From Deltaproteobacteria bacterium (GTDB taxonomy: Bacteria; Myxococcota_A; UBA796; SXON01): 64,000 nt of DNA. Made by a program: the position numbers and the translations under genes. Below the pieces are notes generated by a model, which saw only the letters and a program-made list of their open reading frames with translations, was not told the DNA's origin and searched no databases. This document shows, piece by piece, positions 1 through 60,511 of this stretch. The stretch spans positions 64,598 to 128,597 of the forward strand of contig CANLGL010000002.1 of the NCBI GenBank assembly GCA_947490345.1, written 5' to 3'. Each line of letters opens with the position of its first letter. The stretch's first letter is position 1.

Positions 1-1417
1 CCAGGCCATCCGCGGTGCCACCGCCACCGAGACCAGAACCGCGACCGCCGAGGCCGCCGGAGCCCATCTGGGTGCCCTTGGCACCGATCAGGCCGCCGAT
101 GCCGCTCTGCATGTCGGCGTTCATGCCCGTGGCGCCCAGCGCGGCGTCGAGCGTGTCGTCGCGGAGCGCACCGAGAACACCTGCGTTCTCCGCGATCTCC
201 TTGTCGAGTTGCTGCTTGTCCATCTGGACCTTTTCGCCCTTGGCTTTGTCCATCTTGGCGTCTTTCTTGCCGACCTTGCCCTCTTCCTTCTTGGCCTTGG
301 CCCCTTCGCCAGCTTCAGGGTTCTTGTCTTCCTTCTTCTTGTCCTCTTCCTTCTGCTTGTCGAGAAGCAGTTGGACCATGTGGTCATCGAGGCCCTGGTC
401 GGTGTGATCCGGCGGCGGGGTGACGAAGTAGAGGAAGGAGAAGGCCGCGGTCAAGAAGCCCATGAAGGCAACGATGCCGACGATGGGCCAATCGATTTGG
501 GACGCTGCCTTGGCCGCCAGTTTGCTGGTGTAGACCATGTGCGCGACGAAGATGGTGTTGCCGAGATCGACAACCAGCCGGGTGTCCTCACCGATTTCGA
601 CGAGGAACAGACCGTCACTCCCGCGCTTGGCGGCACCGTCCGCGAGCAGCTCGGCGAAGGTGCGCCGCGTCTCGCCGATGTCCACAAAGCCGGCCCACTT
701 GTCGCTGATGCGAGCCTGCCACTTGCCACCGGCGCCGGTGAAGAGCGAGAAGTTCGCGTTGGGGAGCATGTCGTTGGGCACGAAGAAGGCGGACTGCCAG
801 CTATCCCCGAAGAAGCTGGCGTTGACATTCGAGCCCAGGGTCACCGGGACGTTGCGGAAGTGGCGGACGTCGACGACGGAATCGCCAAACACCTGCGCCA
901 CTTCGAGGACGCGACCGCGCGACTTGTCAGCGGAGGCGTCGTTGGCCGCGGCGCTGGCGCGCATGACGAACGCCATGACATCTTCAACCGGGGCGTCCTC
1001 GTCCTCGGCAGGGTTGAACACGGACTCACCGGGGCTGGTGTGCGCGTCGTTGGTCTCTTCGCCTACCGCGGCAGACTCGGCGGCCTGGCCTGCGGCGGCG
1101 GCCTGCTCCGGAATCTGGAGCTGGATGCGAATCGAGCCGATGCTGATCGAGTCACCGCTCTTCAGCACGATCGAGCTGACGGCCTCGCCGTTGACCTGCG
1201 TGGTGTTGTCACCTGCGAGGTCGTGCAGTTCGACCCTGCCGTCCTCGTTCACATTGAGGACCGCTTGAAGGTCTTGGAGTCCGGGGTCCTCCACGCGGAG
1301 CATGGCGGCTGGGCCCTTGCCGATGGTCACGCTTTCGGCGCGCAGCTCCTCGCGCCGGAGGAGTTCGTCGCCGTTATAGATGTCGAAGCTGAGAGAAAGT
1401 GCGCTGCTGCCGGCCAT
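1..1417 (-). CDS. FHA-domain single-pass membrane protein, 3' end beyond the window (GltG/NfsG position)
   Basis: This gene is absent from the ORF track because there is no stop inside the window. My own translation from ATG 1417 (GAGG upstream) stays open to base 1. The N-terminus is FHA-like: MAGSSALSLSFDIYNGDELLRREELRAESVTIGKGPAAMLRVEDPGLQDLQAVLNVNEDGRVELHDLAGDNTTQVNGEAV..GDSISIGSIRIQL. A TM helix follows (WPIVGIVAFMGFLTAAFSFLYFV), then Lys/Glu-rich and Gly-rich low complexity. GC3 bias is strong. The + ORF 209..1444 is its antisense shadow. Confidence 0.75.
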   Translation of the reverse strand, partial: MAGSSALSLSFDIYNGDELLRREELRAESVTIGKGPAAMLRVEDPGLQDLQAVLNVNEDGRVELHDLAGDNTTQVNGEAVSSIVLKSGDSISIGSIRIQLQIPEQAAAAGQAAESAAVGEETNDAHTSPGESVFNPAEDEDAPVEDVMAFVMRASAAANDASADKSRGRVLEVAQVFGDSVVDVRHFRNVPVTLGSNVNASFFGDSWQSAFFVPNDMLPNANFSLFTGAGGKWQARISDKWAGFVDIGETRRTFAELLADGAAKRGSDGLFLVEIGEDTRLVVDLGNTIFVAHMVYTSKLAAKAASQIDWPIVGIVAFMGFLTAAFSFLYFVTPPPDHTDQGLDDHMVQLLLDKQKEEDKKKEDKNPEAGEGAKAKKEEGKVGKKDAKMDKAKGEKVQMDKQQLDKEIAENAGVLGALRDDTLDAALGATGMNADMQSGIGGLIGAKGTQMGSGGLGGRGSGLGGGGTADGL

Positions 1418-1474
1418 GATTCGTCCTCGGGTCCGGTCGGGTGAACGACGGATCCTGCGGGTTGGGTGTGGGGA

Positions 1475-1750
1475 CTACTTGACCTCGTCGACCGACTGTT
1501 CCATTTCCGCGTTGAAGTCGTTGCGGAGCTTGATCAGTGGGTTGAACTGGGCCTTCTTGCGATCGAGAACGAGAGCGCTGGACGGCTTGACCAGTTCACC
1601 GCTCACATCCAACCCTTCGAAGTCGATCTCGGTCTTCGTCTTGTAGGTGACCTTGCGATCTCCGTCGTCCCCGTCCTGGGCGAGTGCCGGGGCGGTGGTG
1701 GCAAGGACCGCGAGGCCCAAGAACAGCGAACGAGTGACGAGCTTCTTCAT
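1475..1750 (-). CDS. small secreted protein (GltF/NfsF position)
   Basis: Track ORF 1475..1825 trimmed to ATG 1750. This gives the signal peptide MKKLVTRSLFLGLAVLATTAPALA followed by QDGDD. The product is 91 aa and charged, with the tail FNPLIKLRNDFNAEMEQSVDEVK. The functional call rests on position only. Confidence 0.65.
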   Translation of the reverse strand: MKKLVTRSLFLGLAVLATTAPALAQDGDDGDRKVTYKTKTEIDFEGLDVSGELVKPSSALVLDRKKAQFNPLIKLRNDFNAEMEQSVDEVK

Positions 1751-1836
1751 GATCGACTCCGTGAGGCGGGATTGTTCCCGACGGCGGGCAGTTGGACAAT
1801 AGGGAAACGTAAGAGTTCCCGTCAAAGTTGAGTGTA

Positions 1837-3321
1837 CTAGCCCGGGGCGGGTGCCGGAGCCGGTGCTTCGGGTGCTGGGGCCGGGGCTTCGGGCGCAGGG
1901 GCCGGAGCCGCTGGCGCCTCAGGCGGCGGCACAACTGCCGAGCATGCGGTCGCAGCCTCGGTGAGCTGGGCGTAGGCGTCGTCGACGAACGTCATCATGT
2001 CGCCGACCATGGCAAGGTCCTTTTCGACGATGACGGGCTTGGCCTGCTCGATGACCATGGGCGCCAGTTCCATGACGTCGGGGCGGGTGGTCATGAGGCA
2101 CTGCTCGTGCTTCTTGATCAGCTCCTCCATTTCCTTGATCTTCTTGTCCATGCCCGAGAGCCGCTCGGAGTCGCGACGGTCGCGCTCTTCCTTCTCCTTG
2201 CGAAGGCGCTCGATCTCCTCTTTGCGCTTCTTCTCCGCCAACTCCAGGGCCTTCACCTCGTCCTTGAGCTTGAATATCTCGTGGCTCGGAGAGTAGGCGC
2301 CCGACATAGCCTGAATGTGGCTGTCCACGATCTGGGCGGCTTTTTCGAACTTCTTGGTGTAGTGCATGTGCAGCATCGCTGCGTTGATCGCCAACGTGCG
2401 GTGCTTGGGGTCGTTCTTCAAGAGCCCGTCGTAGATCTTTTCGGCCGCCTCGAACTCCTTGGTGCCGCGAAGGGAGATCGCGTAGCCCATCTGGATATCG
2501 ACGTTGGCCGGATGGTTCTTCGCAAGCGGCTCGAAGCAGAGCAGGGCCAGGGCGTAGTCGCCGGAGTTCAGCGCCACGTACCCCAGATTGAGATTGGCTT
2601 CGAAGTTGGTGGGGTCCACTTTGAGTGCGGTGCGGAACTGTGCGATTGCCGCGGGTTCGTTCTTCTGAGCGAGAAGCGTGACGCCCATGTTGTTGTAGAT
2701 GCCGGGATCCGCATCGTTGAGCGTCCGCGCCTTTTCGGCGGCGAGCGTGCTCATCGCGTAGTCGCCCTTGGCGTAGTAGGCTCGCGACAGATTTCGGTAG
2801 GCACCGACGTTCTTCGGTTCGCGCGCCAGGACTTCCTGAGCCTCGGCGATGGCCTCGTCATACAGCTTGGCCGCCGTGAGGGCGTCGACGAGGTTGTTGC
2901 GCGCCTCGTTGTCGTCCGGATGGGCGTCGGAGTAGGCCTTGTAGACCTGCGCCGCTTCTGCACCGCGGTCGACCGACTTCAGCACGCCGCCGAGGTTGTA
3001 GACCGCCGCCCGATAGTCGGGCTTGAGATCGACGGCCTTCCGGTAGCAGGATTCGGCCTTGCCGAGGTCACCGACGCGTTCCGCGGCGTAACCGCAGTTG
3101 AACCAGGCCTTGCCGTAGGTCGGGTCGGCCGCCGCTGCGGACTCGAACTTGGCGAGCGCTCCGGCATAGTCGACCTTGCCGCCGCCTTCGCCCAACAGTT
3201 TCAGGCCAGCGGCAAACTCGGTCTTCGGGTCGACCTGCACTTGTTCGGTGGGATCGCCCTTGAGGGGCTTCTTTTCGCCGCAGCCAACGAGGACCAGTGC
3301 GATGAGGAGAGTACGAAACAT
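1837..3321 (-). CDS. TPR lipoprotein (GltE/NfsE-like by size and position)
   Basis: 494 aa with the lipobox MFRTLLIALVLVGC. Repeated TPR-like units are present (AWFNCGYAAERVGDLGKAESCYRKAV, AYRNLSRAYYAKGDYAMS, ANLNLGYVALNSGDYALA). A Glu/Lys coiled-coil and an APAPAPEAP tail follow. Confidence 0.85.
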   Translation of the reverse strand: MFRTLLIALVLVGCGEKKPLKGDPTEQVQVDPKTEFAAGLKLLGEGGGKVDYAGALAKFESAAAADPTYGKAWFNCGYAAERVGDLGKAESCYRKAVDLKPDYRAAVYNLGGVLKSVDRGAEAAQVYKAYSDAHPDDNEARNNLVDALTAAKLYDEAIAEAQEVLAREPKNVGAYRNLSRAYYAKGDYAMSTLAAEKARTLNDADPGIYNNMGVTLLAQKNEPAAIAQFRTALKVDPTNFEANLNLGYVALNSGDYALALLCFEPLAKNHPANVDIQMGYAISLRGTKEFEAAEKIYDGLLKNDPKHRTLAINAAMLHMHYTKKFEKAAQIVDSHIQAMSGAYSPSHEIFKLKDEVKALELAEKKRKEEIERLRKEKEERDRRDSERLSGMDKKIKEMEELIKKHEQCLMTTRPDVMELAPMVIEQAKPVIVEKDLAMVGDMMTFVDDAYAQLTEAATACSAVVPPPEAPAAPAPAPEAPAPAPEAPAPAPAPG

Positions 3322-3324
3322 GGC

Positions 3325-6300
3325 TTAGGGCTCTTTTTCGTAGGAGGCAGTTGTTGCGGAGGGCGCCGCGAAACGCGGGCTCTGGATGGTCTCGAAAAGA
3401 CCAGGGTACTCATCCGGGGCCAGGACGCCCAGCCGTCGGGTCGCCTCGCCGGTGTCGTCGTTGTAGATCGACAGTTCGAACGCCTTTTCCAACGCGCGGC
3501 TGTAGTAGTCGGCCGCCTTCTGGCGCGCCGGGTACGCCTTGTCCTCGAGCGCCATCCGGTACAGTTCCTTCTGGTCCTCAGTGAGGTACTCAGGAATGTA
3601 GGACTTCAGGAGGGTCTCGCCGACGTCCTCCGACGCGTGGCCGAGGCGCACGAGGCTGGCAACGCCCCATTCGCCGGCACCGGTCTTGACGATGTTGAGG
3701 TAAGTCGTGTCCAAAAGCGGCACGGCCTTCACCTTGCCCACCAACTGCTCGCGTACGATTTTGTCCACCTGCTTCTGGGGCAGCTTCTTGTCGCCCGGGC
3801 CGCTGATCTTGAGCGCCATGAAGGCCTTGAACTCGGGCTCAGCGAGGGCGAACATCATCTGGGCGACGGCCTCGGTCGCGACATCGCCCGTGGCGCCGAG
3901 CTTCTTCTGGGCATCGTAGAACGCTACGCCGTCACGCCAGTGCTGGGTGACCTTGGCGGCCATGCCTACCTTATCCATCATCAAGCCGTACCGGAGCCGG
4001 GCAAACATCATTTCGTCGAAGGTGTAGACCACCGGCGGCGGCGCGTTCTTGGCCGGCTTTCCCGACGGGAGCGTGTACACGCCCAGGTAGATCTTGCTGG
4101 CGTCCGCCCACTTTTCATGGGCCTCGTAGGTCTTGGCGAGCTCAAGCTGGACACCGTTGAGGTTCGGCTCCGTCTTGTACGTCGTCATGTACTTCTGGTA
4201 GTTTCCGATTGCCGTTTCCCACTGGCCCATGGAGTTGCGGAAGATCGCTGCCGAGAAGATTGCGTCCTTCGACCCGGGGTGCGCGGTGTCGAGGCTGAAC
4301 AACTTTTCGTACCAGGACGCCGCGTTGCCGAAGTCGGCGACGGATTCGTAGTCGAAGCCGAGGGCGGCGACCTGGTCCTTGTAGTACTTGGACTTGGGGA
4401 ATTTCTCGACCAGCTCGTGACGCACCTTCATCGAATCGCGGGTGCGGCCGGTCTCGCGGTAGTAGACGCTCGCGTTGTTCAGGGCCAAGTCGGCGTTTGT
4501 GGACTTCGGGAACTCCTTGTAGAAGGCCCAGTAGTCCGCGGCACCCTTGGTCTTGTCCTGGGTCTTCTTGAAGCCTTCTTCGATGAGCTTCAACGACGCA
4601 TTCTCATAGACCGTGAACACTTCGCCCTTGAACGCATCCGAGCCGAGACCGCTCTGGTCGTAGAAGGCCTTGGACACTTCCTTGAGGTTGGTCCAGTCGG
4701 AGACGAGGGTAAAGCTGTCGAGGATCAGCTCGGCCGCCTGCTCGGCTTCGCGGGACTTGGGGTCCATGCCGATAACGACGCGGAAGCGGTCGGACGCCTC
4801 TTTGAACTGGTTCTTGTTGTACAGGAGGTACGCCGATTTGTAGATCATCGACCGCACCTTGGTGCCGTCGTCTGGGTACAGTTTGGTGTACTGATCAAGT
4901 GCCGTGAGGAGCTTCTTTTCCCACGCGCTCAGGTCGATCGCGTCCTTGCTCGCGCCCGGGTCGGGCCCAGCGCCGCTGGCCCTCGTCTCTTTCCTGACGA
5001 ACTCATCGGCGGCGAAGATGGCGGACTCGGCGCAGAACTTGCTGTGCTGGCCTTTGGGGTCCATCGCGACGACCTTCATGTACTGGTCGTAGGCGATGTC
5101 GAACTTCTTCAGCTTGTACAACAGCTCGCCGTAGGCGTAGCGCATGTCGTAGCTGTACTTGGAGTCCGGGAACTCATCGAGGTAGGTGGCGTAGGCGCCT
5201 TCTGCCAGTCCACGGACACGCTTCTGCCCTTCGCCAGTGAGCTTGTTGCCCTCGATCTGGTAGTTGGTGGCGACGGTGCGGAGGTTCTTCTCGATGAACT
5301 CACCGGCGCTCTTCACGGCCTCGGTGTTGCTGGCGTTCGCCCGCGCCCACGAGCTGCTCTTCCCGTATTGGGTGCGAAGACGGTCGATCTCCTGGATCGT
5401 GTCCTCCTTCTTGCCCATCTTGGTGAGGCACTGGATGATCTCGTTCTGATAGTCCGGCGCCTGCGCGGCGTCCGGCTTCTCCGTGATCAACCGGCGATAG
5501 GTCTGGATTGCCTGTTCGAATTTTCCCTGTTCGAAGTAGGTACTGGCCAGGCGCTTGAGCATGTCGCGCACAAGCTCGGGCTTGCCGATCTTGCTGAAGT
5601 ACTCGTAGGCTTCGTCGAGGTCGCCCGCGTCGGCGAAGAACCGAACCAGGTCCTTGAGGGCTTCGTCCTGGAGTTGGATGTTGGCACGGCTGGACGAGCC
5701 GGAATTCGACATCTTTGTCGAGTAGTCGACGACGGTCTTCATCGTCTCAATCGACTTGCCGTACTCGCCGACGTTGTACCAGCACCACGCGAGCTTGTAG
5801 TTCGCGAAGGCGTACTTCTCGAAGTCGCGGAAGGACGCCGCGCGCTGATAGGCCATCAGCGCCTTCATCGCTTCGTTCTTGTCGAAGTAGTACTCGCCGA
5901 TCAACAGATACGCGTCGGGGATGAAGCGGCTGTCGGGGTAGGTCTTGACGAGCCGGGTGAGCTCGACGTTGCTTTCGTCGCGGCGTTTGTTCTCGCCGGT
6001 GGCGTTGGCGACTTCGTTGAGCGCCTGGCCCAGGTAGAAGGTCGCCTCATCGGCCCGAACGAACTGGGGGTAGTTGGCGAGGATCTGTCGGTAGAGCTTG
6101 ATGCTCTTCTCCTGCCACCCGGCGGACGGGGCGTGATCCTGGGGAACCTTGTCGGGCTCGCACTTCGGCGTGTTGAAGCACTTGTCGAACTCGGCCTGGT
6201 AGACCTCCATCTCGCCCTGGTAGAGGAAGCGGCCTTCCTCGAAGTACAGATCGGCGAGGCGGAGGAGCATTTCCGCCTTGGTGTCCCCTTCCACCGGGGA

Positions 6301-6540
6301 GTCCTTCAGGAGCTGCTTGAGGCGTTCAATCGACTCTTTGCGAGCGTCGTGCGCGGCCTCTTCGAGCTCGCGCTGCTTGGCATCGCGACTGGCGGTGTCG
6401 GTCGCCTTGAGGACGCGGCGCTCACTCTTTTGGGTGCGGTCCTGCGCCCACGCTTGCGCGGGTACCAGCGCGGCTCCGGCGACAGGAGCCGCCATGCACA
6501 ACAGGACGAGGGCGGAACGAAAGGAAGGGATGCGGAACAT
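3325..6540 (-). CDS. large periplasmic TPR/helical-repeat protein (GltD/NfsD-like by size and position)
   Basis: 1071 aa with a signal peptide ending PAQAWA. TPR-like repeats run throughout. The gap to the downstream gene is 3 nt. The 1602-aa + ORF on the opposite strand is its antisense artefact. Confidence 0.9.
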   Translation of the reverse strand: MFRIPSFRSALVLLCMAAPVAGAALVPAQAWAQDRTQKSERRVLKATDTASRDAKQRELEEAAHDARKESIERLKQLLKDSPVEGDTKAEMLLRLADLYFEEGRFLYQGEMEVYQAEFDKCFNTPKCEPDKVPQDHAPSAGWQEKSIKLYRQILANYPQFVRADEATFYLGQALNEVANATGENKRRDESNVELTRLVKTYPDSRFIPDAYLLIGEYYFDKNEAMKALMAYQRAASFRDFEKYAFANYKLAWCWYNVGEYGKSIETMKTVVDYSTKMSNSGSSSRANIQLQDEALKDLVRFFADAGDLDEAYEYFSKIGKPELVRDMLKRLASTYFEQGKFEQAIQTYRRLITEKPDAAQAPDYQNEIIQCLTKMGKKEDTIQEIDRLRTQYGKSSSWARANASNTEAVKSAGEFIEKNLRTVATNYQIEGNKLTGEGQKRVRGLAEGAYATYLDEFPDSKYSYDMRYAYGELLYKLKKFDIAYDQYMKVVAMDPKGQHSKFCAESAIFAADEFVRKETRASGAGPDPGASKDAIDLSAWEKKLLTALDQYTKLYPDDGTKVRSMIYKSAYLLYNKNQFKEASDRFRVVIGMDPKSREAEQAAELILDSFTLVSDWTNLKEVSKAFYDQSGLGSDAFKGEVFTVYENASLKLIEEGFKKTQDKTKGAADYWAFYKEFPKSTNADLALNNASVYYRETGRTRDSMKVRHELVEKFPKSKYYKDQVAALGFDYESVADFGNAASWYEKLFSLDTAHPGSKDAIFSAAIFRNSMGQWETAIGNYQKYMTTYKTEPNLNGVQLELAKTYEAHEKWADASKIYLGVYTLPSGKPAKNAPPPVVYTFDEMMFARLRYGLMMDKVGMAAKVTQHWRDGVAFYDAQKKLGATGDVATEAVAQMMFALAEPEFKAFMALKISGPGDKKLPQKQVDKIVREQLVGKVKAVPLLDTTYLNIVKTGAGEWGVASLVRLGHASEDVGETLLKSYIPEYLTEDQKELYRMALEDKAYPARQKAADYYSRALEKAFELSIYNDDTGEATRRLGVLAPDEYPGLFETIQSPRFAAPSATTASYEKEP

Positions 6541-6608
6541 GATCGACGTCTCCGGAACGCGTCGGCGTCAGACAGGCGAGGAGGCGAAATGGGTCAGGAA
6601 AGCGGAGG

Positions 6609-8441
6609 CTACCGGCACTTGGACTGCTCGGTGTAGTGATACCACCCCAGCTCGTCCTTCCAGAACTCACCATTGAACGGCCAGTAAATGAACTTCGGCG
6701 AGGTCGCGAAGTCGGTGTCCTGGCCCTTGGACGTGTCTTGGAGGTCGATGCTCTGGATGCGGTACATCGCGTCGCCGCGTCGCGCGTCGACGACTTCGAA
6801 CTGAATGATGTCGGCCTGCCCGATGAGGTCGCCCAGCTGCTTCGCGAGGCCGACCATATTCTTGAGCAGGGCGCGACCGGCGCGCTTCTTCAGGGTCTCG
6901 CGGGCGTCCGCGATGACTTTCATCATCTGCTCACCGACGGCGCCCTTCCACTGCGACTTCTGCGACTGAATGATCTGCTCTTCGGTGTCGAGGAGCTCCA
7001 AGTGACGAACCAGACCCGAGAGCTCCTGGTCGCGGAGGAGCCGCGTGAACATCGGCTTCGGCAGGACCGTCTCGCCCTTGCCCTCGAAGTACCGCTCGTA
7101 GGCCTGGTCGGCCAGGGCGCGACCTTCTTCCGACGAATAGGTCTTGAGGGTGTCTTTGAGCTCGGTGTGGACGGGCATGTAGCGAGACTTGAAGTCGCCG
7201 AGCGTGCGGTCCACGTCGTCGTACTGGCACATGTTGAAGTAGGTGAGCGCCCGCAGGACGGTGGCCTCGGGCAGGTACTCGGAGTCCGAGTAGTACGGGC
7301 TTTCCACCGTCAGGATCTCGCCGAGGGTGTAGTTGAGGTCGCTGAGCAGGAACGCCGCCCACGCCATCTCGAACTGCGCCTGCGGCCAGTACACGCTGTC
7401 CCGGGGCACCTGGAGGTACATTTCCTTGGCCTGGGCGTGCTCGCCGATGCCATAGTAGATGCGGGCGATATTCAGCACCGAGAGCTCACGAAGGCGGCCG
7501 AGCGCCTCGATCTCCTGCAGGGTCGGCGCTTCGGGCTTGGCCTTGGCCACCTCGCCGAAGGACCGCACCGCGGACTTCAGCTTCAACGTCTTGTTGTCGA
7601 TGACGCCTAGCAGGTAGGTTGCGCGCAGGTACACGTCAGACTTTTCTCCGACCTGCTGCAGCATCTTCTTGGCGTCAGAGAGCTTGTCGGCGTCGTAGAG
7701 TTGGACCCCCTTGAGGTAGTACAACTGGCTCTTCGCGCCCTTGGGGTAGTCCTCGGGCTCAATCTTCGCCACGACCTTGTTCAGGTCGGTCGCATCACCG
7801 GTGAGATGGTAGATCTGGACGAGCTTCGGCAGCGCGTACTTGAAGAACGGACTCCCGGTGCCCCGCTTGAGCACCTCGATGAAGTAGTACTGCGCCGAGT
7901 GGTACATCTTGAGGTCGTACAGCGACATCCCCAGGTAGTAGAGGATCTTTTCCTCCTTGTCGGGGAAGGTGCCGTCCTTGAGCAAATCGTGTAGGGCCAG
8001 GGACGCCGACAGGGGCTTCTTGGCCTTGTACTGGCGGATCGCATCGTCGAGCTTCTGCGGGTCCTTGCCGTCTTCTTCGCTGTCTTTGTCGGTGAGCTCT
8101 TTGCGCTTGCCCTTGCCGGCGCCGACCTCTTCCTCTTCGTCAAAGCCCTTGCGCGCCGCTTCCTTCTTGGAGACAGGCCTTTCCTCTTCAGCCGGGGCGG
8201 CCTCTTCCTTCGGCGCCGAGTCGCGCGCGATCTGCTTCTTGACGGCCCCGATCACGGCATCCGGGGCGCCTTCGTTGGTCAGGCAGCGCACGAAGTCGGC
8301 CGTGAACGACTCGCCCGATTCCTCGACGGTCTGGACGACGATCGCTTCCGGTACGTTGACGTTGACCATGTTCATGACCTCGTCGCACGTGAGCGCGTGC
8401 GCTGGGGTCGCGAGAGCGAAGAGGAGCAAGCTGGTCATCAC
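6609..8441 (-). CDS. TPR protein (GltC/NfsC-like by size and position)
   Basis: 610 aa with the signal peptide MMTSLLLFALATPAHA. An acidic/Lys-rich linker is followed by TPR-like repeats and the C-terminal motif FIYWPFNGEFWKDELGWYHY. The start overlaps the upstream stop by 4 nt. Confidence 0.85.
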   Translation of the reverse strand: MMTSLLLFALATPAHALTCDEVMNMVNVNVPEAIVVQTVEESGESFTADFVRCLTNEGAPDAVIGAVKKQIARDSAPKEEAAPAEEERPVSKKEAARKGFDEEEEVGAGKGKRKELTDKDSEEDGKDPQKLDDAIRQYKAKKPLSASLALHDLLKDGTFPDKEEKILYYLGMSLYDLKMYHSAQYYFIEVLKRGTGSPFFKYALPKLVQIYHLTGDATDLNKVVAKIEPEDYPKGAKSQLYYLKGVQLYDADKLSDAKKMLQQVGEKSDVYLRATYLLGVIDNKTLKLKSAVRSFGEVAKAKPEAPTLQEIEALGRLRELSVLNIARIYYGIGEHAQAKEMYLQVPRDSVYWPQAQFEMAWAAFLLSDLNYTLGEILTVESPYYSDSEYLPEATVLRALTYFNMCQYDDVDRTLGDFKSRYMPVHTELKDTLKTYSSEEGRALADQAYERYFEGKGETVLPKPMFTRLLRDQELSGLVRHLELLDTEEQIIQSQKSQWKGAVGEQMMKVIADARETLKKRAGRALLKNMVGLAKQLGDLIGQADIIQFEVVDARRGDAMYRIQSIDLQDTSKGQDTDFATSPKFIYWPFNGEFWKDELGWYHYTEQSKCR

Positions 8442-9298
8442 TTCATCCCTGGGAAGAAGAAGGAAACGTTCGCCTGGACGATCAGGTTGTTCTTCATCTC
8501 GAGCGTCGTGGACTTGACGACCTCGATGTAGGTCATGGACTTGACCTCGAAGCGCACGCCTACCGATTCACTGAAGGCCACGCGGGCGCCGCCGCCCATG
8601 ATGGTGGTCGGATGGACCTGGTACTGGGTGCGATGCGCGGGGCCGTCCGGTGGCTCGTCATCGGCCTGCAGCGCGATCAAGTCGTCTTCGGTGGCGGTGA
8701 TGCCAAGGCCGACGGTGCCGTAGATGTCGAAGGCGATGATGTCACGGCCAGAAGCGACCTTCCCGTAGATCGGCGCGAACTGCAGGCCGACGTTTCCGTG
8801 CGCCGTGAGCCGCGAAATGTCCGGGGACACCGAGTTCTTGGTAAGTAGCTGGCAAGACAGGGGCTTCCAGTCCGGGTCGTCGCAACCGCCCTGGCCCAGG
8901 ATCGGGGCGTACGCGCCCTGGAGCTCGATCGCGAAGATCTCCGTGGCGTGGTAGTCGAAGACCGCGCCGAGAATGTACCGATTCAGGAAGGGGTCGTTCG
9001 CGACAAAACCCACGGAAGGTCCGATCTCATAGCGATGGAGCTTTACGAAGGTCTTGGGTTGAATCGTCTTGATGACCTTGCGGCGGCGTTTGGGTTCCGG
9101 CTTTTTTTCGGTCGTCTTGCCGGACTTCACCGCATCCTTCTGCGCCTTCACGGAGTCTTCGTCTTCGTCATCTTCGTCCTGGGCCACAGCGAGGACGTCG
9201 AACCCGGCCAGGGGGTCCGGAGCGTCCTCGGCGAGAGCCGGGGCGGCGAGCGCGAGGGCGGGGGCGGCCAGTGCGAGGAAGATAGCAATGCTCAGCAT
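8438..9298 (-). CDS. outer-membrane beta-barrel protein (GltB/NfsB-like)
   Basis: 286 aa with the signal peptide MLSIAIFLALAAPALALAAPALA. An acidic low-complexity linker is followed by an amphipathic beta-strand pattern ending NVSFFFPGMK. It is paralogous to the next gene. Confidence 0.8.
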   Translation of the reverse strand: MLSIAIFLALAAPALALAAPALAEDAPDPLAGFDVLAVAQDEDDEDEDSVKAQKDAVKSGKTTEKKPEPKRRRKVIKTIQPKTFVKLHRYEIGPSVGFVANDPFLNRYILGAVFDYHATEIFAIELQGAYAPILGQGGCDDPDWKPLSCQLLTKNSVSPDISRLTAHGNVGLQFAPIYGKVASGRDIIAFDIYGTVGLGITATEDDLIALQADDEPPDGPAHRTQYQVHPTTIMGGGARVAFSESVGVRFEVKSMTYIEVVKSTTLEMKNNLIVQANVSFFFPGMK

Positions 9299-9314
9299 CG
9301 GGGATCCTTGCCGC

Positions 9315-10202
9315 TCAGAAGTTGAAAAGGCGGGGCTTCATCTTCGGCACGAAGATGGAGATTCCCCCGGTGGTGATGAAGACGGACTGGATCTCGTCGT
9401 TGAGAACCTGCTTCTGTCCGGTCGTGGGGTCGATGTCGCCGACGATATAGTCGGCCTCCGGCCCAATGAAAACCAAGGTGCGTGCGTCAAGCTTCAGAGC
9501 GATCGTCGGACTGATGAAGAAGTTGACCCCCACGCCCAGGTTCAGCGCCGGGCTGAACTGCTGCTGCGGGTTCGGCTCGAGCGACACCGGATCCGTCGTC
9601 TCCCCATTCCGGTAGGCATCGCTGACCACGGCGATGTCCTTGGACACCGCCGCCAGACCCACGCCGGCCGTGCCGTACATGTCAAAGTTGACGACCCCTT
9701 CACCGAGCAGATTGATCTTCCCGTACACCGGCGACCACCGCGCCGAGAAGGCGGCGGCGATGCTGAGGCGGTCGATCGGCTGCTGAAAAGTAGTGCCCGG
9801 ATCGCTCTGATAGGCGATGTCGAGCAAGGTGCGGGTCAGGTTCTTGACGCCGGAGGTGCCCGTGTTCGGCGAGTAGAGAACCGCGGCCTCGACAGACAGC
9901 TTTTCGTCGAAGTGGTAGGCGAGGTACGCCCCGCCCACGTAGCTGTCCGCGAAGGAGTTGTTCGGCACGTAGCCGAGGGACGGCGCAATCTCGAAGCGAT
10001 TTCCCTTGAGGAAGAAGCGATTCCGGATCAGGTCGATCGGCTGCTTCTTTCCCTTGAATTCTTCGAGCGCGACCACGGCGCTGTTCTTGTCTTTGGCAAA
10101 CGCCGCGGTCGGGCTGGCAAGGCCCAGGGCGAGCACAGCCAGCATCGACAAGCGACACAGCGCACGTGTTGAGGTTTCGATAAATCGTCCGGCAGGCTTC
10201 AT
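9315..10202 (-). CDS. outer-membrane beta-barrel protein (GltA/NfsA-like)
   Basis: 295 aa with a signal peptide ending PTAAFA. It shares motifs with 8438..9298: NRFEIAPSLGYVPNNSF versus HRYEIGPSVGFVANDPF, and WSPVYGKI..FDMYGTAGVG versus FAPIYGKV..FDIYGTVGLG. Confidence 0.8.
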   Translation of the reverse strand: MKPAGRFIETSTRALCRLSMLAVLALGLASPTAAFAKDKNSAVVALEEFKGKKQPIDLIRNRFFLKGNRFEIAPSLGYVPNNSFADSYVGGAYLAYHFDEKLSVEAAVLYSPNTGTSGVKNLTRTLLDIAYQSDPGTTFQQPIDRLSIAAAFSARWSPVYGKINLLGEGVVNFDMYGTAGVGLAAVSKDIAVVSDAYRNGETTDPVSLEPNPQQQFSPALNLGVGVNFFISPTIALKLDARTLVFIGPEADYIVGDIDPTTGQKQVLNDEIQSVFITTGGISIFVPKMKPRLFNF

Positions 10203-10301
10203 TCCAGCTCTCCGCTAGCCACAATTCCCAGGGTGGGGTCCGAGGGCGGCGCACCATAGCACGGAACCCACGGTTAGGCTGTCCGGACAATCGGGTCCGC
10301 C

Positions 10302-10709
10302 ATGGGGTTCTGGCTTTCGATCGCAGTCGCCGCTGGCACGGGTGATGTCGTGCTGCTTGGCCCGTCCGCGCCGCTCGCGTCGACCGACGCGGTCAGCCTT
10401 ACGCTGACCACGCCAGGGGCGAGCTTCATCGACGGGTGCTCCCCGGTTGAGTTGGAGAAAAAGGATGGAGAGCGGTGGATATCTGTCCCCCGTCGGGCCT
10501 GCACTCAACGGCTGCCGGCCAGCCGGGTCGAGGGGAGCCTCGTGGTCTCGGTGCCGCCCCCCGGCCCCGGGGAGTACCGCGCTGTGGTGACCTGGGCGAC
10601 GGGCTGTGCCGAAGGCGTGGCCCTCGCTCACGCGGCGTGCAGCGTGGTGGCTGCCGTTCGCTCCGAGCCGTTTACTTGCCGGGCGGAGGCGGTCAAGCCG
10701 GCGCCTTGA
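10302..10709 (+). CDS. hypothetical small Cys-containing protein, opposite strand to the cluster
   Basis: 135-aa ORF with a high GC3 codon pattern (by eye more than 80 percent), a protein-like composition and 5 Cys. There is an in-frame stop 9 codons upstream of the ATG. The competing minus-strand ORFs in this gap are Arg/Gly/Pro junk. Its 3' end overlaps the 10693..11562 gene by 17 nt. Confidence 0.45.
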   Translation: MGFWLSIAVAAGTGDVVLLGPSAPLASTDAVSLTLTTPGASFIDGCSPVELEKKDGERWISVPRRACTQRLPASRVEGSLVVSVPPPGPGEYRAVVTWATGCAEGVALAHAACSVVAAVRSEPFTCRAEAVKPAP

Positions 10710-11562
10710 AGCGAACGCGCAGCTCGGACCAGCCCATCCCGCCTCGCCGATCGCGAACCACGACCCAGAGGCTCGCGGTGTCGTGGACTGGCTCTTCGGG
10801 GCTGAAGTAGACGGTGGTGTCCACCGGGAAGATCGAGTTGGACTGGCTGAACGAGCCTTCCTCCAGGTACCAGGACAGGTAGGGCTCCTCGGTCAGGGAT
10901 TTGGTGACGCCGGCGCTGGTGACAAAGGTGTAGGGCTCCACGGAGCCCGAGGTGAGCTCCGCGCGCAGGTCGTAGGCCTGCCCCCGGTCGAGAAGGACCT
11001 CGGCGCCGACTTCGATGGCGAGCCCATCCACGCGCCAAGCCAAGACGGCCGGATTGTGGTTCGGTGTCGCTGCGAGCGAGACGGGAACGCGTTTATAGGC
11101 GAGCTCCACGTCGTCTTCGTCGAGCGTCCCGCCCTCCGCCACTTCCGGGATCGCAGCCAGGTAGGTCATCGCGAATGAGCCCTCCAAGCGCTCCGCCTCG
11201 GTCAGGGAGTCGAGGTAGTCGGCCGGGACGACCCAGGCCGGGGGAAGCGCGGGTAGGAAACCGATGAAGCCGGCGGCTGCAAGGTCCTCCGGGTCCGCCT
11301 CCTCGAGCGATCCGCCTTCAAAAAGCGCAGGATCCACCGAGCAGCCGAAGTCGTCGGAGGCGCCCCCGTCGCAGACGAACCAAGCGCTCCCCGCGAGCGG
11401 ATCGACCGGGGACACGATCAGGGCGTTGAAGGTGACCAGATCTCCTGGCCGCGGCTCGGCTGGTTCGGTGGCGACGGCCAGGACGCGGAGGCGGTCAATC
11501 TGCCAAGACTGACTCAGATCTTCGGTGTCACACGCCACGAGTTGGAGAATCATCGAGATCAA
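10693..11562 (-). CDS. hypothetical protein, possible lipoprotein, partner of the TonB-dependent barrel
   Basis: 289 aa. The hydrophobic N-terminus is very short and has a lipobox-like LVAC (MISMILQLVACDTED). The protein is acidic and I recognise no family. Its start overlaps the stop of the barrel gene by 4 nt. Confidence 0.75.
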   Translation of the reverse strand: MISMILQLVACDTEDLSQSWQIDRLRVLAVATEPAEPRPGDLVTFNALIVSPVDPLAGSAWFVCDGGASDDFGCSVDPALFEGGSLEEADPEDLAAAGFIGFLPALPPAWVVPADYLDSLTEAERLEGSFAMTYLAAIPEVAEGGTLDEDDVELAYKRVPVSLAATPNHNPAVLAWRVDGLAIEVGAEVLLDRGQAYDLRAELTSGSVEPYTFVTSAGVTKSLTEEPYLSWYLEEGSFSQSNSIFPVDTTVYFSPEEPVHDTASLWVVVRDRRGGMGWSELRVRFKAPA

Positions 11563-14182
11563 AGCGGCACCTTCAGCTCGAAGCCGGGGCTGGGGATGAT
11601 CGGAAGCCCCTTGAAGTAGGTCTTCTCGGTGTAGTCGTAATTGTATTGCTCGAACTCTGGATTTTCTCCATGGAGTGCGTTGATCACGTCCAGATAGACC
11701 AGCAGCTGCCAGGATTTGAAGGTGAACAGCTTGTCAATTCTGGCCGACACCGCCCAATATGGCGGAAGGCGTTCGCTGTTGGTGTCCCCCGACGGGAATG
11801 CCACGTAAAAGTCCTGATCGACGTCGTAGACTCCGAGTGCGTACGGGGTGGTCGGGTTGCCGGTGGTGTACTGCACCTTGGCGCCGAGCGAGAGGTCGTA
11901 GGGCAGCCGATAGCCGGCCACGGCGGTGAGGATGTGCGTCTGGTCGAAGTCGAAGAGGTACCAGTCTTCGTCTGGGTAATCTTGACGTTCGCTGCGCGAA
12001 AGGGTGTAGCTGACCCATCCGAAGAGCCTTCCGATGGGCTCGTGGCGGGCAATGACCTCCACTCCGTACGCGCGGCCGTCGCCCGAGTTGACGAAGTAGC
12101 TGTCGTCGAGGCTGCCGAAGGACCGGTTGCTGACGATCAAGTCGTTGAGGTCCTTGTAGAAGCCCTCCACCTCGAGCTTGATGGCCGGTCCGATCGCCTG
12201 CTCAAAACCGAGTGAGCTTGCCCAGGCCTCCTCCGCGCCAACGAGGGCGGGATCGTCGTCCGGGCGGTATTGCTGGAAGGGCTGGGGCGGCTGATGGTAC
12301 AGGCCAGTCGAGCCCTTGATGACGCTGGTTTTCCCGACGGCCCAACGCGCGGAGAAGCGGGGGTCCAACGCGAGGACCTCGTTCTCATCAGGGATGATCA
12401 CGTACATCAATCGAACCCCCGCATTGAGGGTCAACTGGTCCGTGTCCTGAAGCGGTTTCCAGCGAACGTTGAGCCAGGGGTCCGGCCCGTACCCGGTGGC
12501 GGTCCCCTTGAGTTGGTACGGCTCGCGTTCGGCAAGCGGGTCGATCTCCGCGAAGCTCGCGGGATTGAACGGCAGTTCGATGATGAAGTCGGCCCAACCG
12601 GCGATCAAGTCGAGCCCCGCGGTCACCGAGAGGTGATCGGCGTGTTCGTAGGCGGCCTCGGCCCGCAGCTCGGCGGTGTACCGCGTCTGGATCAGGTGGA
12701 AGGTGTCGCCGACGTCGAGTGCGGCCTCGTCCATGCCGAAGCTCGGCGCGATGCGAGCCGACCAGTGTTGGCCCCAGGCCCGGTCCCAGGTGCCGCCGAA
12801 GCGATACGTGCTATATTGCGTGCCGATGTCGCCCTGGGTGTCAGGGTCGGTGCCCTGCGCGTAGCCGTCCGGTGTGTGGATGAAGAGCGTGTCGCGGAAG
12901 CCGAAGGCCAGGAGCGAGAACTTATCTGGGTTGTCCCCCTGGTATTGATACTTCGCCTGGAAGTCCCACCACTGGGGCGAAACCGTGAATCCATCGTCAG
13001 CGAGAAAGGCGGGGAGGATGAGGTCGATGTACGACGCGCGGGCGGCGACGCCGACGCCGTGTTGGTGGTCCGTTCCGAAGCTGCCCAGCCACACGCCGCC
13101 GCTGTCCAATGCGTCTGTGGACCAGCGCAGCTCGTGTCGTTCGGGAAACTGGGTGCGGGTCGTGGCGTCGACGGAGCCGCCGGTGCTGCGGCCGTATTGC
13201 GGCCCGTACCCCCCTGGCAGATAGTCCACGCTCTTGACGAGGTCGGGATTGATGATCGATTCGAAGCCGCCAAGGTGGTAGATGTACGGGATGTACATGC
13301 CGTCGATGTAGACGCGGCTGTCTTCCGGATTGGCCCCGCGGATGATGAGCACGCCGGTCCCGAGGGGCGCCCGCGCCGCTCCCGGAAGGTTCTGCACGAC
13401 GCGAATGGGGTCTCCGAACGTACCCGGAATACGACGAATCTCGTCCATTGAGATGGTGCGTCGGGTGACGTCGGCCGTTTCACGGCGATAGGTGCCGATG
13501 ATTCCCGGATCGGCGTAGGATTGGTTCCGGACCCACAGTCGGGCGCTGGTGACCTCGCCCGCCACGACGTCGACGGGCTTCTGCAGCGTGTCGTAACCGG
13601 GGTGCAATGCCCTGACCGTGTGGCTTCCAGGAGGGAGGCCCCTGAACTGCCACCGACCCTGCGCGTCGGTCTCACTTTCGAGGTTCAGGGCGTCGATGCG
13701 GACGAGGAAGTCGGGGAGCGGCCGCCGGGTCCCCATCTCGACCACGGTGCCTTGCAGGTTGACGGGGAGCTCGGCAGGGTCGCCGACCGGCTGCGCCTGT
13801 TCGTGGGCACCGGCCTTAGCTGCCGCGTCGAGCACGAAACCATACGCGAACTCGATCGCGACGGGCACGGGGCCGGTGGCGTCCTCTGCCGGGCTGAAAC
13901 GGAACTGCCGGGCCGCAGCTACCGCAGCTTCGTCAAAGCCGTTGCCCGCCGGCACCAACACCTCGACCAGGGTGACCGTCCCGGCCGCGTCGATCTCGAT
14001 GAGCAGGTTGACCGTGCCTTCAAGCTTCAGGGCGGCCGCATCCGGTGGGTATGGCGCCTGTACGAAATCGAGGAGGGCGGGGTCCTTGGTCAGCGGCGGG
14101 AGCTCCTCGGCCGGGACCACGGGCGCTTCTTCGGCGCGTGCCAGCGGGCTTCCGACGAGCAGCGCGGTCAGAAGCGCAGAGA

Positions 14183-14186
<4 letters not shown>
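11559..14186 (-). CDS. TonB-dependent receptor-like OM barrel with N-terminal TonB_C and CarboxypepD_reg-like domains (Oar-like)
   Basis: Track ORF 11559..14768 trimmed to ATG 14186, which forms an ATGA overlap with the tonB stop. This gives the signal peptide MISALLTALLVGSPLARA. The TonB_C signature is APYPPDAAALKLEGTVNLLIEIDAAGTVTLVEVLVPAGNGFDEAAVAAARQFRFSP. A carboxypeptidase-regulatory-like segment follows (LQGTVVEMGTRRPL..GRWQFRGLPPGSHTVRALHPGY). The plug region reads ISMDEIRRIPGTFGDPIRVVQNLPGA..IRGANPEDSRVYIDG. A long beta-barrel ends GFELKVPL. Confidence 0.85.
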
Positions 14187-14916
<730 letters not shown>

Positions 14917-14920
<4 letters not shown>

Positions 14921-15339
14921 GGCGCGGCGAACTCGACAGGCTCGATATTGATGGCGAAGCGGGCGACGCCTTCCTGCTTCACAAGGTCGATGAGGTGAGT
15001 CACGTCGCCATGCCGGGCGTCCCGATCGCCGGCCACCAGGCAGACGACCTGGTCATTGGCGATGCGGGCGGCACGTACGGCCGCGCGCAGTTCCGGCTCG
15101 GTGACCGGGTTGCCGTCGAGGAGCAGTTGGCCGGCGGCCGTCACGGTGATCGCCAACGAAGACGGGGCGGTCGCGTCACCCGTCGCCGCGTCGGGCAGGT
15201 TGACCTTGATCGATGGGGAGACGATGTACGAGGTCGTCACCATGAAGATGATGAGCACGACCAGGATGATGTCGACCAACGGCAAGATGTTGATCTCGGT
15301 CATCCCCTCATCGTCGCCGCTGAGTCGCGCGCCGGCCAT
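14917..15339 (-). CDS. ExbD/TolR family protein
   Basis: 140 aa with the family motif EINILPLVDIILVVLIIFMVTT. Confidence 0.9.
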
Positions 15340-15340
15340 C

Positions 15341-16012
15341 CTACGTCCCCTCGGCGCGCATCCGTGCCACCACGAGGTCAGCCAGGCTCTCGATGCGCGA
15401 GAGCTGTGAGCGGACCATGCGGGTCAGGAAGTTGTACAGCACGACCGCGGGGATGGCGACCATCAGCGCGACGGCGGTCGACACCAGCGCCTCCGAGATC
15501 GCGCTCATGACCATCTTTCCGGAGTCTGTCGACTCGAGCGACAGCTCGTGGAAGGCCTGGATGATGCCCAGAACGGTGCCGAAAAGCCCGATGAAGGCCG
15601 CGGTGGAGGCGACCGTGCCGACGACCAGCAGGCCCCGCTCAAGGCGGAGGCGCTCGAACAGAATGGTCCCCTGCATGGCGTGTTGCGATGCCGCGGACAC
15701 CCGTGCGCGAAGTCCGGCCAGAAGGACGCGGGACTCGACCCCCTGCTGCTGGTTCAAGGACGCCTCCAGCTCATCGCGAGGGCCGCCGGAGAGGTAGCGG
15801 CCCACCGCCGCCTCGAAGGGGCCGGCGGGGGTGCGGTTCACCACAAAGTACACCACGCGCTCGATCCCGATCGCCACGCAGAGGAACGACAAGATCACGA
15901 GCAACCAGAGCACCCACCACGCACCCAGGAGCGCGAAGTTCAGCATCGCCTTTGCCAGCATCACGACCCCGTCGGCGGCGCCCGCTAATTCGTTGCCTCG
16001 CTCCCGGGACAC
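15341..16012 (-). CDS. MotA/TolQ/ExbB proton-channel protein
   Basis: 223 aa with three TM segments and the family motif [17 protein letters not shown]. The true start may be ATG 15961 (MLAKAML), which would remove the overlap with the upstream ORF. Confidence 0.9.
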   Translation of the reverse strand: MSRERGNELAGAADGVVMLAKAMLNFALLGAWWVLWLLVILSFLCVAIGIERVVYFVVNRTPAGPFEAAVGRYLSGGPRDELEASLNQQQGVESRVLLAGLRARVSAASQHAMQGTILFERLRLERGLLVVGTVASTAAFIGLFGTVLGIIQAFHELSLESTDSGKMVMSAISEALVSTAVALMVAIPAVVLYNFLTRMVRSQLSRIESLADLVVARMRAEGT

Positions 16013-16323
16013 GCTCGCACAAAGCTTGACGCGCTACGGCCCGTCGCCTCGGGCAGCGTCGCCACGAGGTTCGCCGCGGCGATGATCTCCTGGGGAGAGT
16101 GTGGGGTGATGGCGGGCCCGATCGCACAGCCATCAGCAGTGTAGAAGCGCAGGGTGCCCGGTGGCTGGACCGCGTCGGATTCGAGCAGAATCGGGTGGAA
16201 GCGGTCGTTGAAAAAGGTGGTCACGTCGGGGTGTGCGACCAGCCGGTCCACGGCCCCCCATGGGGCATCCACAACCAAAACAACTGGGCGCTCGACCGGC
16301 TGGGTGAGCGTTCGCCAGTCCAT
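15985..16323 (-). CDS. hypothetical thioredoxin-fold-like protein (no CxxC)
   Basis: This is the part of track ORF 15985..16710 downstream of the tRNA. From ATG 16323 it reads MDWRTLTQPVERPVVLVVDAPWGAVDRLVAHPDVTTFFNDRFHPILLESD, which is protein-like. The start is uncertain (see findings). Confidence 0.35.
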   Translation of the reverse strand: MDWRTLTQPVERPVVLVVDAPWGAVDRLVAHPDVTTFFNDRFHPILLESDAVQPPGTLRFYTADGCAIGPAITPHSPQEIIAAANLVATLPEATGRSASSFVRACPGSEATN

Positions 16324-16405
16324 CCACTGCGCGGCCGACGGGGTGGTGGTGGCTGGCGGCGGGTCCGGGGGATCGCTGCACGCCACTAGCGCGGCGAAGG
16401 GGAGG

Positions 16406-16480
16406 TGGAGGTGACGGGCGGGGTTGAACCGCCGTATGATGGTTTTGCAAACCATTGCCTTACCACTTGGCGACGTCACC
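16406..16480 (-). tRNA. tRNA-Cys (anticodon GCA), CCA encoded
   Basis: Hand-folded cloverleaf of 75 nt: GGTGACG TC GCCA AGTGGTA AGGC A ATGGT TTGCAAA ACCAT CATAC GGCGG TTCAACC CCGCC CGTCACC T CCA. The acceptor stem has 7 bp, the anticodon stem 5 bp and the T stem 5 bp. The discriminator is U73 and there is an A13:A22 mismatch, both typical of tRNA-Cys. Confidence 0.93.
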
Positions 16481-16534
16481 AGGCGCCTCGTCCTAAGACC
16501 CGCTCCACGGTTCCGCAAGGGGGGCGAAGGCTGG

Positions 16535-53648: not shown

Positions 53649-53700
53649 CGGGGACGTCTCCGCAGTCAAAGCAATAGCACAGGATCGCCGAAGGGCCCAC

Positions 53701-60079: not shown

Positions 60080-60511
60080 CTACTTGGCCTTTCCCGGCTG
60101 GGTGACCAGGCCGACCTTGGGGACGCCGGCCAGCTTCGCCAGTTCCAGGAGCGTCATGACCTCCTGATAGGGGAGGGAGCCATCCGCCTGCACGAAAACG
60201 GGCTGCCCGGGATGGATCTTCCCCTCTTCCACGAGGTTCGCCTCGAGCTGCTCCCGCGTCAGCGGCAGGGGCTGCCCGGTACCCCGCGCCAGCGTCAGGC
60301 TACCGTCCTTCTGGAGGCCGATGACCAACTCCTGGCCGGTGAGCGTGGCCGGCGGGGTGTTCGCGCTCGGCAGGTCGATGTCGACTCCGGTCGTCATCAA
60401 GGGGGCGGTGATCATGAAGATCACCAGCAGGACCAGCATCACGTCCACGAAGGGGGTGACATTGATCTCCGACATCATCGCGCCGTCGCGGGATGGCCCG
60501 GTCATGCTCAT
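60080..60511 (-). CDS. tolR: TolR (ExbD/TolR family)
   Basis: This is the last 143 aa of track ORF 60080..61372. [30 protein letters not shown]. The ATG shares one base with the tolQ stop (TGATG). Confidence 0.9.

Follow-up and report, generated by a model that had tools for sequence, protein, structure and literature searches.

We analysed a stretch of 64,000 nt (hereafter the window, in which positions are counted throughout) of a contig from an uncultured Myxococcota-like bacterium that carries, at its left edge, a cluster of genes related to those for the Glt gliding machine and the Nfs spore-coat machine of Myxococcus xanthus; genes of the left flank were read from the source contig and are given with L001 coordinates. 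The window has a G+C content of 60-70%, and its positions 1-10202 hold seven consecutive open reading frames (ORFs) on the minus strand, here called A to G:

9315..10202, minus strand: A, gltA/nfsA-like outer-membrane beta-barrel (295 aa)
8438..9298, minus strand: B, gltB/nfsB-like outer-membrane beta-barrel, paralogue of A (286 aa)
6609..8441, minus strand: C, gltC/nfsC-like periplasmic TPR connector (610 aa)
3325..6540, minus strand: D, gltD/nfsD-like large periplasmic TPR protein (1071 aa)
1837..3321, minus strand: E, gltE/nfsE-like TPR lipoprotein (494 aa)
1475..1750, minus strand: F, gltF/cglF/nfsF-like small secreted protein (91 aa)
1..1417, minus strand: G, gltG/nfsG-like inner-membrane protein (start at 1417; the N-terminal 472 of 609 aa lie inside the window)

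The seven genes are spaced by -4 to 86 bp (A-B 16, B-C -4, C-D 68, D-E 3, E-F 86 and F-G 57 bp), and since each of them has significant family matches and dozens of syntenic orthologues (see below), they are real genes rather than chance ORFs. The source, recognised by an exact protein match, is a metagenome contig of 217 kb (ENA ERZ27280196) on which the window takes up positions 89,787-153,786. On this contig G continues to its full length of 609 aa (L001:11905-13734) and is followed, 26 bp further on and to the left of the window, by an eighth gene, H, encoding 273 aa, so that the full set is gltA-B-C-D-E-F-G-H, in the order of nfsA-H. Beyond H lie a gene for a 366-aa lipoprotein-like protein with choice-of-anchor-D domains and then rplC. 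The first-pass annotation of this DNA had described seven minus-strand genes with tiny gaps or overlaps as a Glt/Nfs-type cluster in nfsA-G order, and had suggested extending the sequence leftward in search of an nfsH/gltH-like gene and of a TonB_C end on the gene cut by the window edge; the cluster has stood up and now extends from A to H, and full-length G indeed ends in a TonB_C-like tail of the AgmX/PglI type.

Family membership of the products was assessed with Pfam and NCBIfam models, using the equivalog cut-offs set by NCBIfam. Pfam alone gave a generic barrel for A, TPR matches for C, D and E, and an FHA domain for G. With NCBIfam, A and B both exceed the cut-off of 60 bits for TIGR04565 (OMP_myx_plus) at 92.7 and 80.8 bits, respectively; they are 25% identical to one another over 242 aa (E 2e-24) and match the barrel gene that precedes gltC in the Glt-type clusters L090 and L089 (loci used for comparison are cited by L number where needed), for whose barrels B is the best match in the window (E 4e-14 to 2e-14). 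Signal peptides were found in A, B, C, D, F and H, and the C-termini of A (...LFNF) and H (...KYTF) are aromatic and of the outer-membrane-protein type. Protein C aligns over residues 73-609 with positions 62-619 of the 622-position model NF033756 (gliding_GltC; E 4.3e-71, 240 bits, below the equivalog cut-off of 450) and is 27% identical over 514-524 aa to the C-like protein of L089. Protein E, which has a lipobox (LVGC), a coiled-coil and a Pro/Ala-rich tail, matches NF033758 (gliding_GltE; E 1.3e-38, 133 bits, below the cut-off of 225) and shares 28% identity over 340 aa with Archangium GltE (E 7e-35), and F matches NF033764 (gliding_CglF, the same as GltF; E 1.5e-15, 57 bits, below the cut-off of 90) and shares 40% identity over 93 aa with Archangium GltF. 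G combines an FHA domain (PF00498, E 5e-10) with a single transmembrane (TM) helix at residues 312-330, a Gly/Lys-rich linker and the TonB_C-like tail past the window edge; at full length it scores 316.8 bits (E 3e-94) against NF033760 (GltG), below the cut-off of 650, and 106.6 bits against NF033768 (AgmX/PglI C-terminal domain), above the cut-off of 40. H reaches 96.3 bits for NF033755 (CglE, the same as GltH; cut-off 70). At the equivalog level, C, E, F and G therefore fall short of the GltC, GltE, GltF and GltG models, and only the CglE/GltH model is passed.

For D, the counterpart of the protein described as the 'central pillar' of the published structural model, there is no dedicated model, and its Pfam and NCBIfam matches are confined to YbgF/CpoB, BamD and generic TPR families. 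A profile built from D and its relatives retrieved 1,999 proteins at E<=1e-30 from 1.84 billion representatives, and D has hundreds of close relatives, all of them from metagenome-assembled genomes (MAGs) of uncultured Myxococcota or "Deltaproteobacteria". One of the 1,999, P0212, is 61% identical to a protein of Archangium minus that heads a gltD-E-F-G-H-x-gltI locus, in which E, F, G and H are all over the equivalog cut-offs. D and this Archangium minus GltD are reciprocal best matches (27% identity over 1075 aa, E 3.8e-93), and when the Archangium Glt proteins were compared with every ORF in the window, each matched the one in the equivalent position and no other. The predictions made from the letters alone thus held for the single products: two paralogous outer-membrane barrels of about 290 aa that fall inside the GltA/B-NfsA/B family, TPR proteins of 610, 1071 and 494 aa that are not merely generic (C and E match the GltC and GltE models and D is a reciprocal GltD homologue), a 91-aa secreted protein with a signal peptide (F), and an FHA/TM/low-complexity gene at the edge (G), with sizes and predicted compartments that agree with Table 1 of PMC3169522.

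A scan of one genome per species yielded 80 loci with GltD identities of 45-96%; the related loci are mostly from lakes, and one belongs to the MAG UBA796. When each gene was scored over the related loci with enough flank to test it, the genes were kept in order as follows:

A: 67 of 67 related loci
B: 72 of 72 related loci
C: 73 of 74 related loci
E: 61 of 63 related loci
F: 60 of 60 related loci
G: 52 of 55 related loci
H: 47 of 52 related loci

The A-H order held down to 45% GltD identity, and gene order is kept in about 78 related loci. All three refuting conditions named in the first-pass annotation (merely generic TPR matches, barrels outside the family, gene order not conserved) thus failed to apply. 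Variants occur: three loci (L060, L063 and L081) pass from gltF directly to gltH with no gltG in the cluster, L063 among them still having the upstream ExbB-ExbD-TonB-receptor block, and some relatives (L015:17400-18857 and similarly L018, L019, L021, L022, L024, L031, L032 and L084) carry between G and H a second GltG paralogue of about 485 aa that has no FHA domain and keeps the AgmX/PglI tail. This second paralogue, absent from the organism of the window, recalls the GltG/GltJ pair of M. xanthus. A BLAST-based survey from 2026 recorded GltD, GltB and AglQ as missing from MAGs of two classes, UBA796 and Vahlivitia; a complete conserved A-H cluster is nonetheless present in L073, a contig with UBA796 in its title, and in about 77 further species-level genomes of relatives.

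In gene content, order, family membership and conservation the region is a member of the Glt/Nfs family, and we put at roughly 75% the probability that it encodes a trans-envelope 'transducer' complex of this family in an uncultured Myxococcota-like bacterium, the motor of which would most likely be encoded elsewhere. The assembly, energy source and cellular role of such a complex can be proposed from the M. xanthus machines, in which AglR binds GltG and NfsG and proton flow is required for gliding and for spore-coat assembly. In an AlphaFold-based model (PMC11761067), the GltG TM region docks on AglR5QS, the disordered GltG linker spans the periplasm and its TonB-like tail binds GltD, which carries GltE and reaches an outer-membrane platform of GltA/B/H/K via GltC and GltF; of the parts of this model, all but GltK are encoded in the cluster. 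Homology to these machines, together with the parts encoded here, suggests that an adhesin or a polymer is moved at the cell surface by a proton-driven transducer. G would reside in the inner membrane, with its FHA domain in the cytoplasm and, beyond the single TM helix, a long flexible periplasmic linker rich in Gly and Lys that leads to the TonB_C-like tail; the TM region of G would dock on a proton-driven stator of the TolQR/ExbBD type, and force would pass from G through the peptidoglycan to D, the large TPR protein. D, in turn, would bind the lipoprotein E and, via C and the small protein F, join an outer-membrane platform formed by the barrels A, B and H. The output would be directed movement at the cell surface, either of an adhesin, as in gliding, or of a surface polymer, comparable to the action of Nfs on the spore coat. 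Luciano et al. (PMC3169522) regard any bacterium with AglRQS and GltA-G as a potential glider, and as the likely role we slightly favour surface gliding or attachment to particles over the handling of a polymer or coat, with the sequence not deciding between the two.

Several observations weigh against this interpretation. C, E, F and G lie below the equivalog cut-offs and are, as judged from these scores, family members rather than orthologues of the M. xanthus gliding proteins, so that function would not be directly transferable from M. xanthus. None of GltI, GltJ, GltK, CglB, AglZ and MglA was seen near the cluster, and GltI, GltJ, GltK and CglB are absent within 10 kb on either side of it; in Archangium, L088 and L090, gltH has gliding-specific components as neighbours. 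No AglRQS-type set occurs in the 84 kb of source contig that were examined. The organisms are known as MAGs only, mostly from lake water, with no recorded motility or spore phenotype. Finally, an ExbB/ExbD/TonB-containing block upstream of gltA (described below) is adjacent in 84% of the testable loci, which may leave room for a functional coupling.

The single-cluster layout, which the first-pass annotation had contrasted with the two glt clusters of M. xanthus, is not unusual, as such layouts have already been published for nfsA-H of M. xanthus (MXAN_3371-3378, with the motor outside the cluster; PMC3169522, PMC3858216), for Anaeromyxobacter (Adeh_3326-3318, contiguous K-B-A-C-D-E-F-G-H), for Haliangium (Hoch_3957-3964, with the Agl motor unlinked) and for Bdellovibrio (Bd0828-0838, with aglR-aglQ-aglS attached). 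Compared with the GltA-K machine of M. xanthus, Archangium and Anaeromyxobacter, homologues of GltA-H are all present here with agreeing sizes and predicted locations, whereas GltI (about 4,100 aa), GltJ, GltK and CglB are neither in nor beside the cluster. In consisting of A-H only, the cluster agrees with the Nfs, Haliangium and Bdellovibrio clusters and departs from the complete gliding set. The 'expanded core' clusters of Haliangium and Bdellovibrio share the compact barrel(s)-C-D-E-(F)-G arrangement and have D proteins of 1058 and 1066 aa (1071 aa here), their function being untested or only inferred; a GltH/CglE-like H is found here, while Luciano et al. (PMC3169522) report GltH to be absent in Bdellovibrio. 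NfsA-H of M. xanthus is similar in its eight genes, its single cluster in A-H order, its pattern of domains and compartments and its lack of GltI/J/K counterparts, but the sequences are distant: identity of the GltD-type protein to those of Cystobacterineae is about 27%, NfsB has 442 aa (B, 286 aa) and NfsD 1219 aa (D, 1071 aa), and the present cluster has the extra choice-of-anchor-D lipoprotein gene after H and no sign of sporulation or of an exo locus.

These likenesses bring up the possibility that the cluster is a direct counterpart of Nfs, that is, a sporulation or cyst-coat machine that moves secreted polysaccharide around the cell surface and has no part in motility. Having exactly A-H in one cluster, as in nfsA-H and without GltI, GltJ and GltK, speaks for it, as does the presence, about 40 kb off within the window, of a Wza-like Poly_export gene accompanied by genes for a glycosyltransferase and an epimerase. 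We nevertheless consider it unlikely, because nfs arose as a duplicate of glt in a terminal myxobacterial branch (PMC3169522, PMC3858216), which makes a distant lineage co-orthologous to both, and because Haliangium and gliding Bdellovibrio likewise have sets limited to A-H; in addition, no exo-like locus is adjacent and no spore formation is known for the lineage. The polysaccharide-export genes themselves, at 47550-50295 on the minus strand, comprise the Wza-like Poly_export/SLBB gene (49465-50295), a gene for an NAD-dependent epimerase (48464-49465) and a glycosyltransferase fragment; some 40 kb from the glt-like genes, the group is of relevance only if the machine handles a surface polymer.

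On the other side of gltA, the sequence continues with the following features:

10203..10301, no strand assigned: divergent intergenic region upstream of gltA (99 bp), putative promoter region of the glt-like operon
10302..10709, plus strand: 135-aa ORF between the glt-like and TonB operons, an annotated gene in the source; context, not a part of the machine
10693-11562, minus strand: predicted lipoprotein, 289 aa, with LVAC near the N-terminus
11559-14186, minus strand: TonB-dependent receptor, 875 aa (PF07715 Plug, CarboxypepD_reg, N-terminal TonB_C-like)
14183-14920, minus strand: tonB (PF03544)
14917-15339, minus strand: exbD (PF02472)
15341-16012, minus strand: exbB (PF01618)

No sigma-70 consensus is present in 10203..10301, and the promoter placed there is inferred only; in a scan for consensus promoters and terminators the counts were no different from those in shuffled sequence. 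The 135-aa ORF has no Pfam or NCBIfam family match and is kept only in closer relatives, at 32-80% identity. The exbB-exbD-tonB-receptor-lipoprotein genes overlap or abut, and the exbB/exbD/tonB set lies 3,980-5,810 bp upstream of the gltA start, behind the receptor gene. It had first been placed only 0.5 kb upstream, which proved wrong: the distance is 4.0 kb, and the interval from 0.1 to 1.4 kb holds the 135-aa ORF and the lipoprotein gene. A search of the 1.4 kb upstream of gltA for ExbB/ExbD/TonB by Pfam and NCBIfam was accordingly without a MotA/ExbB, ExbD or TonB signature.

The operon resembles ExbB-ExbD-TonB systems with a receptor of the Oar/MxcH type in having a MotA_ExbB protein, one ExbD, a proline-rich TonB (with a poly-Pro tract and an SxxxH motif in the TM segment) and a receptor with Plug, CarboxypepD_reg and N-terminal TonB_C-like parts. 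It differs from them in that ExbB and ExbD score below both the TolQ/TolR and the ExbB/ExbD equivalog cut-offs and in its persistent location beside the glt-like cluster; a PDB search with ExbB revealed equal similarity to TolQ and to ExbB. The first ~100 residues of the receptor resemble those of the myxochelin receptor MxcH, and the protein has no match to a standard barrel model in Pfam. The 289-aa lipoprotein, which lacks a Pfam or NCBIfam match, invariably accompanies the receptor; in L046 and L058 the order of the two is rearranged.

ExbB, ExbD, a proline-rich TonB and a Plug receptor thus occur in one operon, as in TonB-ExbB-ExbD transport. The Agl motors are built differently: the 20-odd sets in Table S3 of Luciano et al. 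(PMC3169522), from M. xanthus, Anaeromyxobacter, Bdellovibrio, Geobacter and Haliangium, have one MotA/TolQ/ExbB and two ExbD/TolR genes and no TonB, whereas here a single ExbD gene is followed by tonB. Judged by its sequence, the neighbouring set is a self-sufficient TonB-receptor operon that appears to be transcribed separately from the glt-like genes, and the ExbB-ExbD-TonB proteins most likely energise their own co-operonic receptor. Since this overlapping unit lies behind a plus-strand ORF, since Agl motors have two TolR-like genes and no TonB, and since ExbB is absent within 10 kb in 8 of the 50 testable loci that carry the glt cluster, the motor is probably unlinked; as in M. xanthus and Haliangium, its genes most likely lie in another part of the genome. 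The notion of a compact, self-contained machine raised by the first-pass annotation therefore did not survive, the candidate motor being a separate receptor operon 4 kb away, behind an opposite-strand ORF and without the Agl architecture.

The alternative in which the machine is self-contained after all would be a hybrid, in which the adjacent ExbB-ExbD is a dedicated proton motor replacing AglRQS, possibly joined by an additional outer-membrane module made up of TonB, the Oar/MxcH-like receptor and the lipoprotein. The block directly upstream of gltA is kept in 42 of 50 (ExbB) to 60 of 64 (lipoprotein) loci, with GltD identity down to 45% and L3 identity down to about 50%. Further in its favour are the lack of an Agl-type set within the 84 kb, the divergence of ExbB/ExbD as a stator under the Tol and Exb equivalog cut-offs, the TonB_C-like tail on G, which implies a need for an ExbBD/TolQR-like partner, and the above survey, which scored the UBA796 and Vahlivitia MAGs without an AglQ homologue. 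As a downstream control, however, the rplC, CoA-transferase and IMPDH genes are kept to a similar degree. With these unrelated housekeeping genes showing synteny just as strong, the region as a whole is simply stable, and lying side by side does not speak for coupling; we accordingly rejected conserved adjacency as proof of an ExbBD-Glt link. The neighbour set is also a complete canonical unit with a TonB (poly-Pro, SxxxH) and a receptor of its own; it forms a separate transcription unit 4 kb off, behind the opposite-strand ORF, has one ExbD where every known Agl motor has two TolR-like genes, and is absent within 10 kb from eight loci that retain the glt cluster. Moreover, the M. xanthus AglR paralogue MXAN_3003 binds neither GltG nor NfsG, which indicates that the pairing of stator and transducer is specific. 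We thus hold a dedicated adjacent motor to be distinctly improbable. The same goes for the fuller proposal of an undescribed TonB-Glt hybrid, in which the Glt/Nfs-type transducer of this lineage is coupled to the adjacent divergent ExbB-ExbD(-TonB), receptor and lipoprotein and no AglRQS exists, and to which we give little credence; if true, it might be the ancestral stage that connects energy transduction of the TonB/Tol type with surface transport of the gliding type.

Within the 84 kb there is just one further stator, that of a TolQ-TolR-TolA-TolB operon. We considered the genes at 60.1-61.2 kb as a second stator of the Agl type and found them to be genuine tolQ and tolR of this operon. The operon spans 57154-61233 on the minus strand, with TolQ (60511-61233) and TolR (60080-60511) both above their equivalog cut-offs, and continues with a 229-aa TolA-like gene, tolB (58038-59360) and a gene for a Ppx-GppA phosphatase. 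Further Glt clusters were reached via GltD-family representatives, and none of these had a linked motor. Lone GltD paralogues (46-48% identical to D) are present at L068 and L077, in MAGs that also carry the full cluster, with genes for an alpha/beta hydrolase, a PD40 beta-propeller protein and a MopE-motif protein as neighbours; these loci were ruled out as hidden core complexes with motors, since neither a stator nor any other glt gene is nearby.

A generic TPR/porin set that is linked to envelope maintenance of the Tol-Pal or BAM type and has no more than a superficial likeness to Glt, to which the library matches of D (YbgF/CpoB, BamD and generic TPR only) and the annotation of its relatives as 'TolA-binding protein' or 'cellulose synthase operon protein C' might point, is extremely unlikely, given that five of the eight proteins match Glt-specific models, that D aligns end to end and reciprocally with a validated GltD, that the full A-H order agrees with published clusters and that a true Tol-Pal operon is located elsewhere in the window.

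The Glt/Nfs transducer reading consequently adds a lineage to a known family and no new kind of machine, and a linked ExbBD-TonB motor is unsupported by the present evidence. With it, the proton-driven surface-transport machines of the Glt/Nfs family reach into a widespread Myxococcota-like lineage that is uncultured and lives mostly in freshwater. The same A-H cluster is kept in about 78 species-level genomes of this lineage, and these organisms may be capable of gliding or of handling surface polymers without this being recorded in current trait tables.

Several minor observations concern the flanks of the cluster. The 366-aa protein encoded 52 bp after H (L001:14634-15734) has three Ig-like domains of the choice-of-anchor-D type and a lipoprotein-like N-terminus; its gene is kept after H in 35 of 51 loci, and the protein may be either cargo of the machine or one of its surface components, with nothing to tie it to known Glt parts. 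The rplC gene that follows (50S protein L3; L001:15850-16503) scores 242.8 against a cut-off of 142.9 for TIGR03625 and stands alone between the CoA-transferase and IMPDH genes instead of in the S10 ribosomal operon, an arrangement shared by 43 of 48 related loci. Two tandem genes for PilZ-domain proteins are located downstream of the cluster region (L001:19481-21430), outside the window.

At the other end of the TonB operon, a tRNA-Cys gene (GCA anticodon; 16406-16480, minus strand) lies immediately upstream of exbB, and the 241-aa ORF that runs over it (15985-16710) is probably spurious. An Rfam scan for a riboswitch that might hint at the substrate of the receptor found only this tRNA-Cys. 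A sub-threshold Rfam match to CRISPR-DR20 inside the receptor gene (13647-13682, plus strand; 26 bits against a gathering threshold of 42, E 0.11) is a single copy in coding sequence and was taken as a chance match.

The remainder of the window is housekeeping in nature. It includes genes for three large secreted proteins, of 1080 aa (53759-57001, minus strand), about 876 aa (51018-53669, minus strand) and 649 aa (24942-26891, plus strand), whose sole Pfam match is the MopE Cu-binding (putative metal-binding) motif; a similar protein is encoded beside the GltD paralogue of L077. Past the right end of the window there is a type IV minor-pilin group (PilW, GspH, N_methyl) with a sigma-54 activator (L003:1212-3983). 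Lastly, many of the high-GC contigs that bear the cluster (L012, L014, L022, L023, L025, L059, L081 and others) carry titles such as Klebsiella pneumoniae, Bifidobacterium breve, Enterobacterales, Cognaticolwellia and Alphaproteobacteria, which are clearly either mistaken or stand-ins for MAGs.

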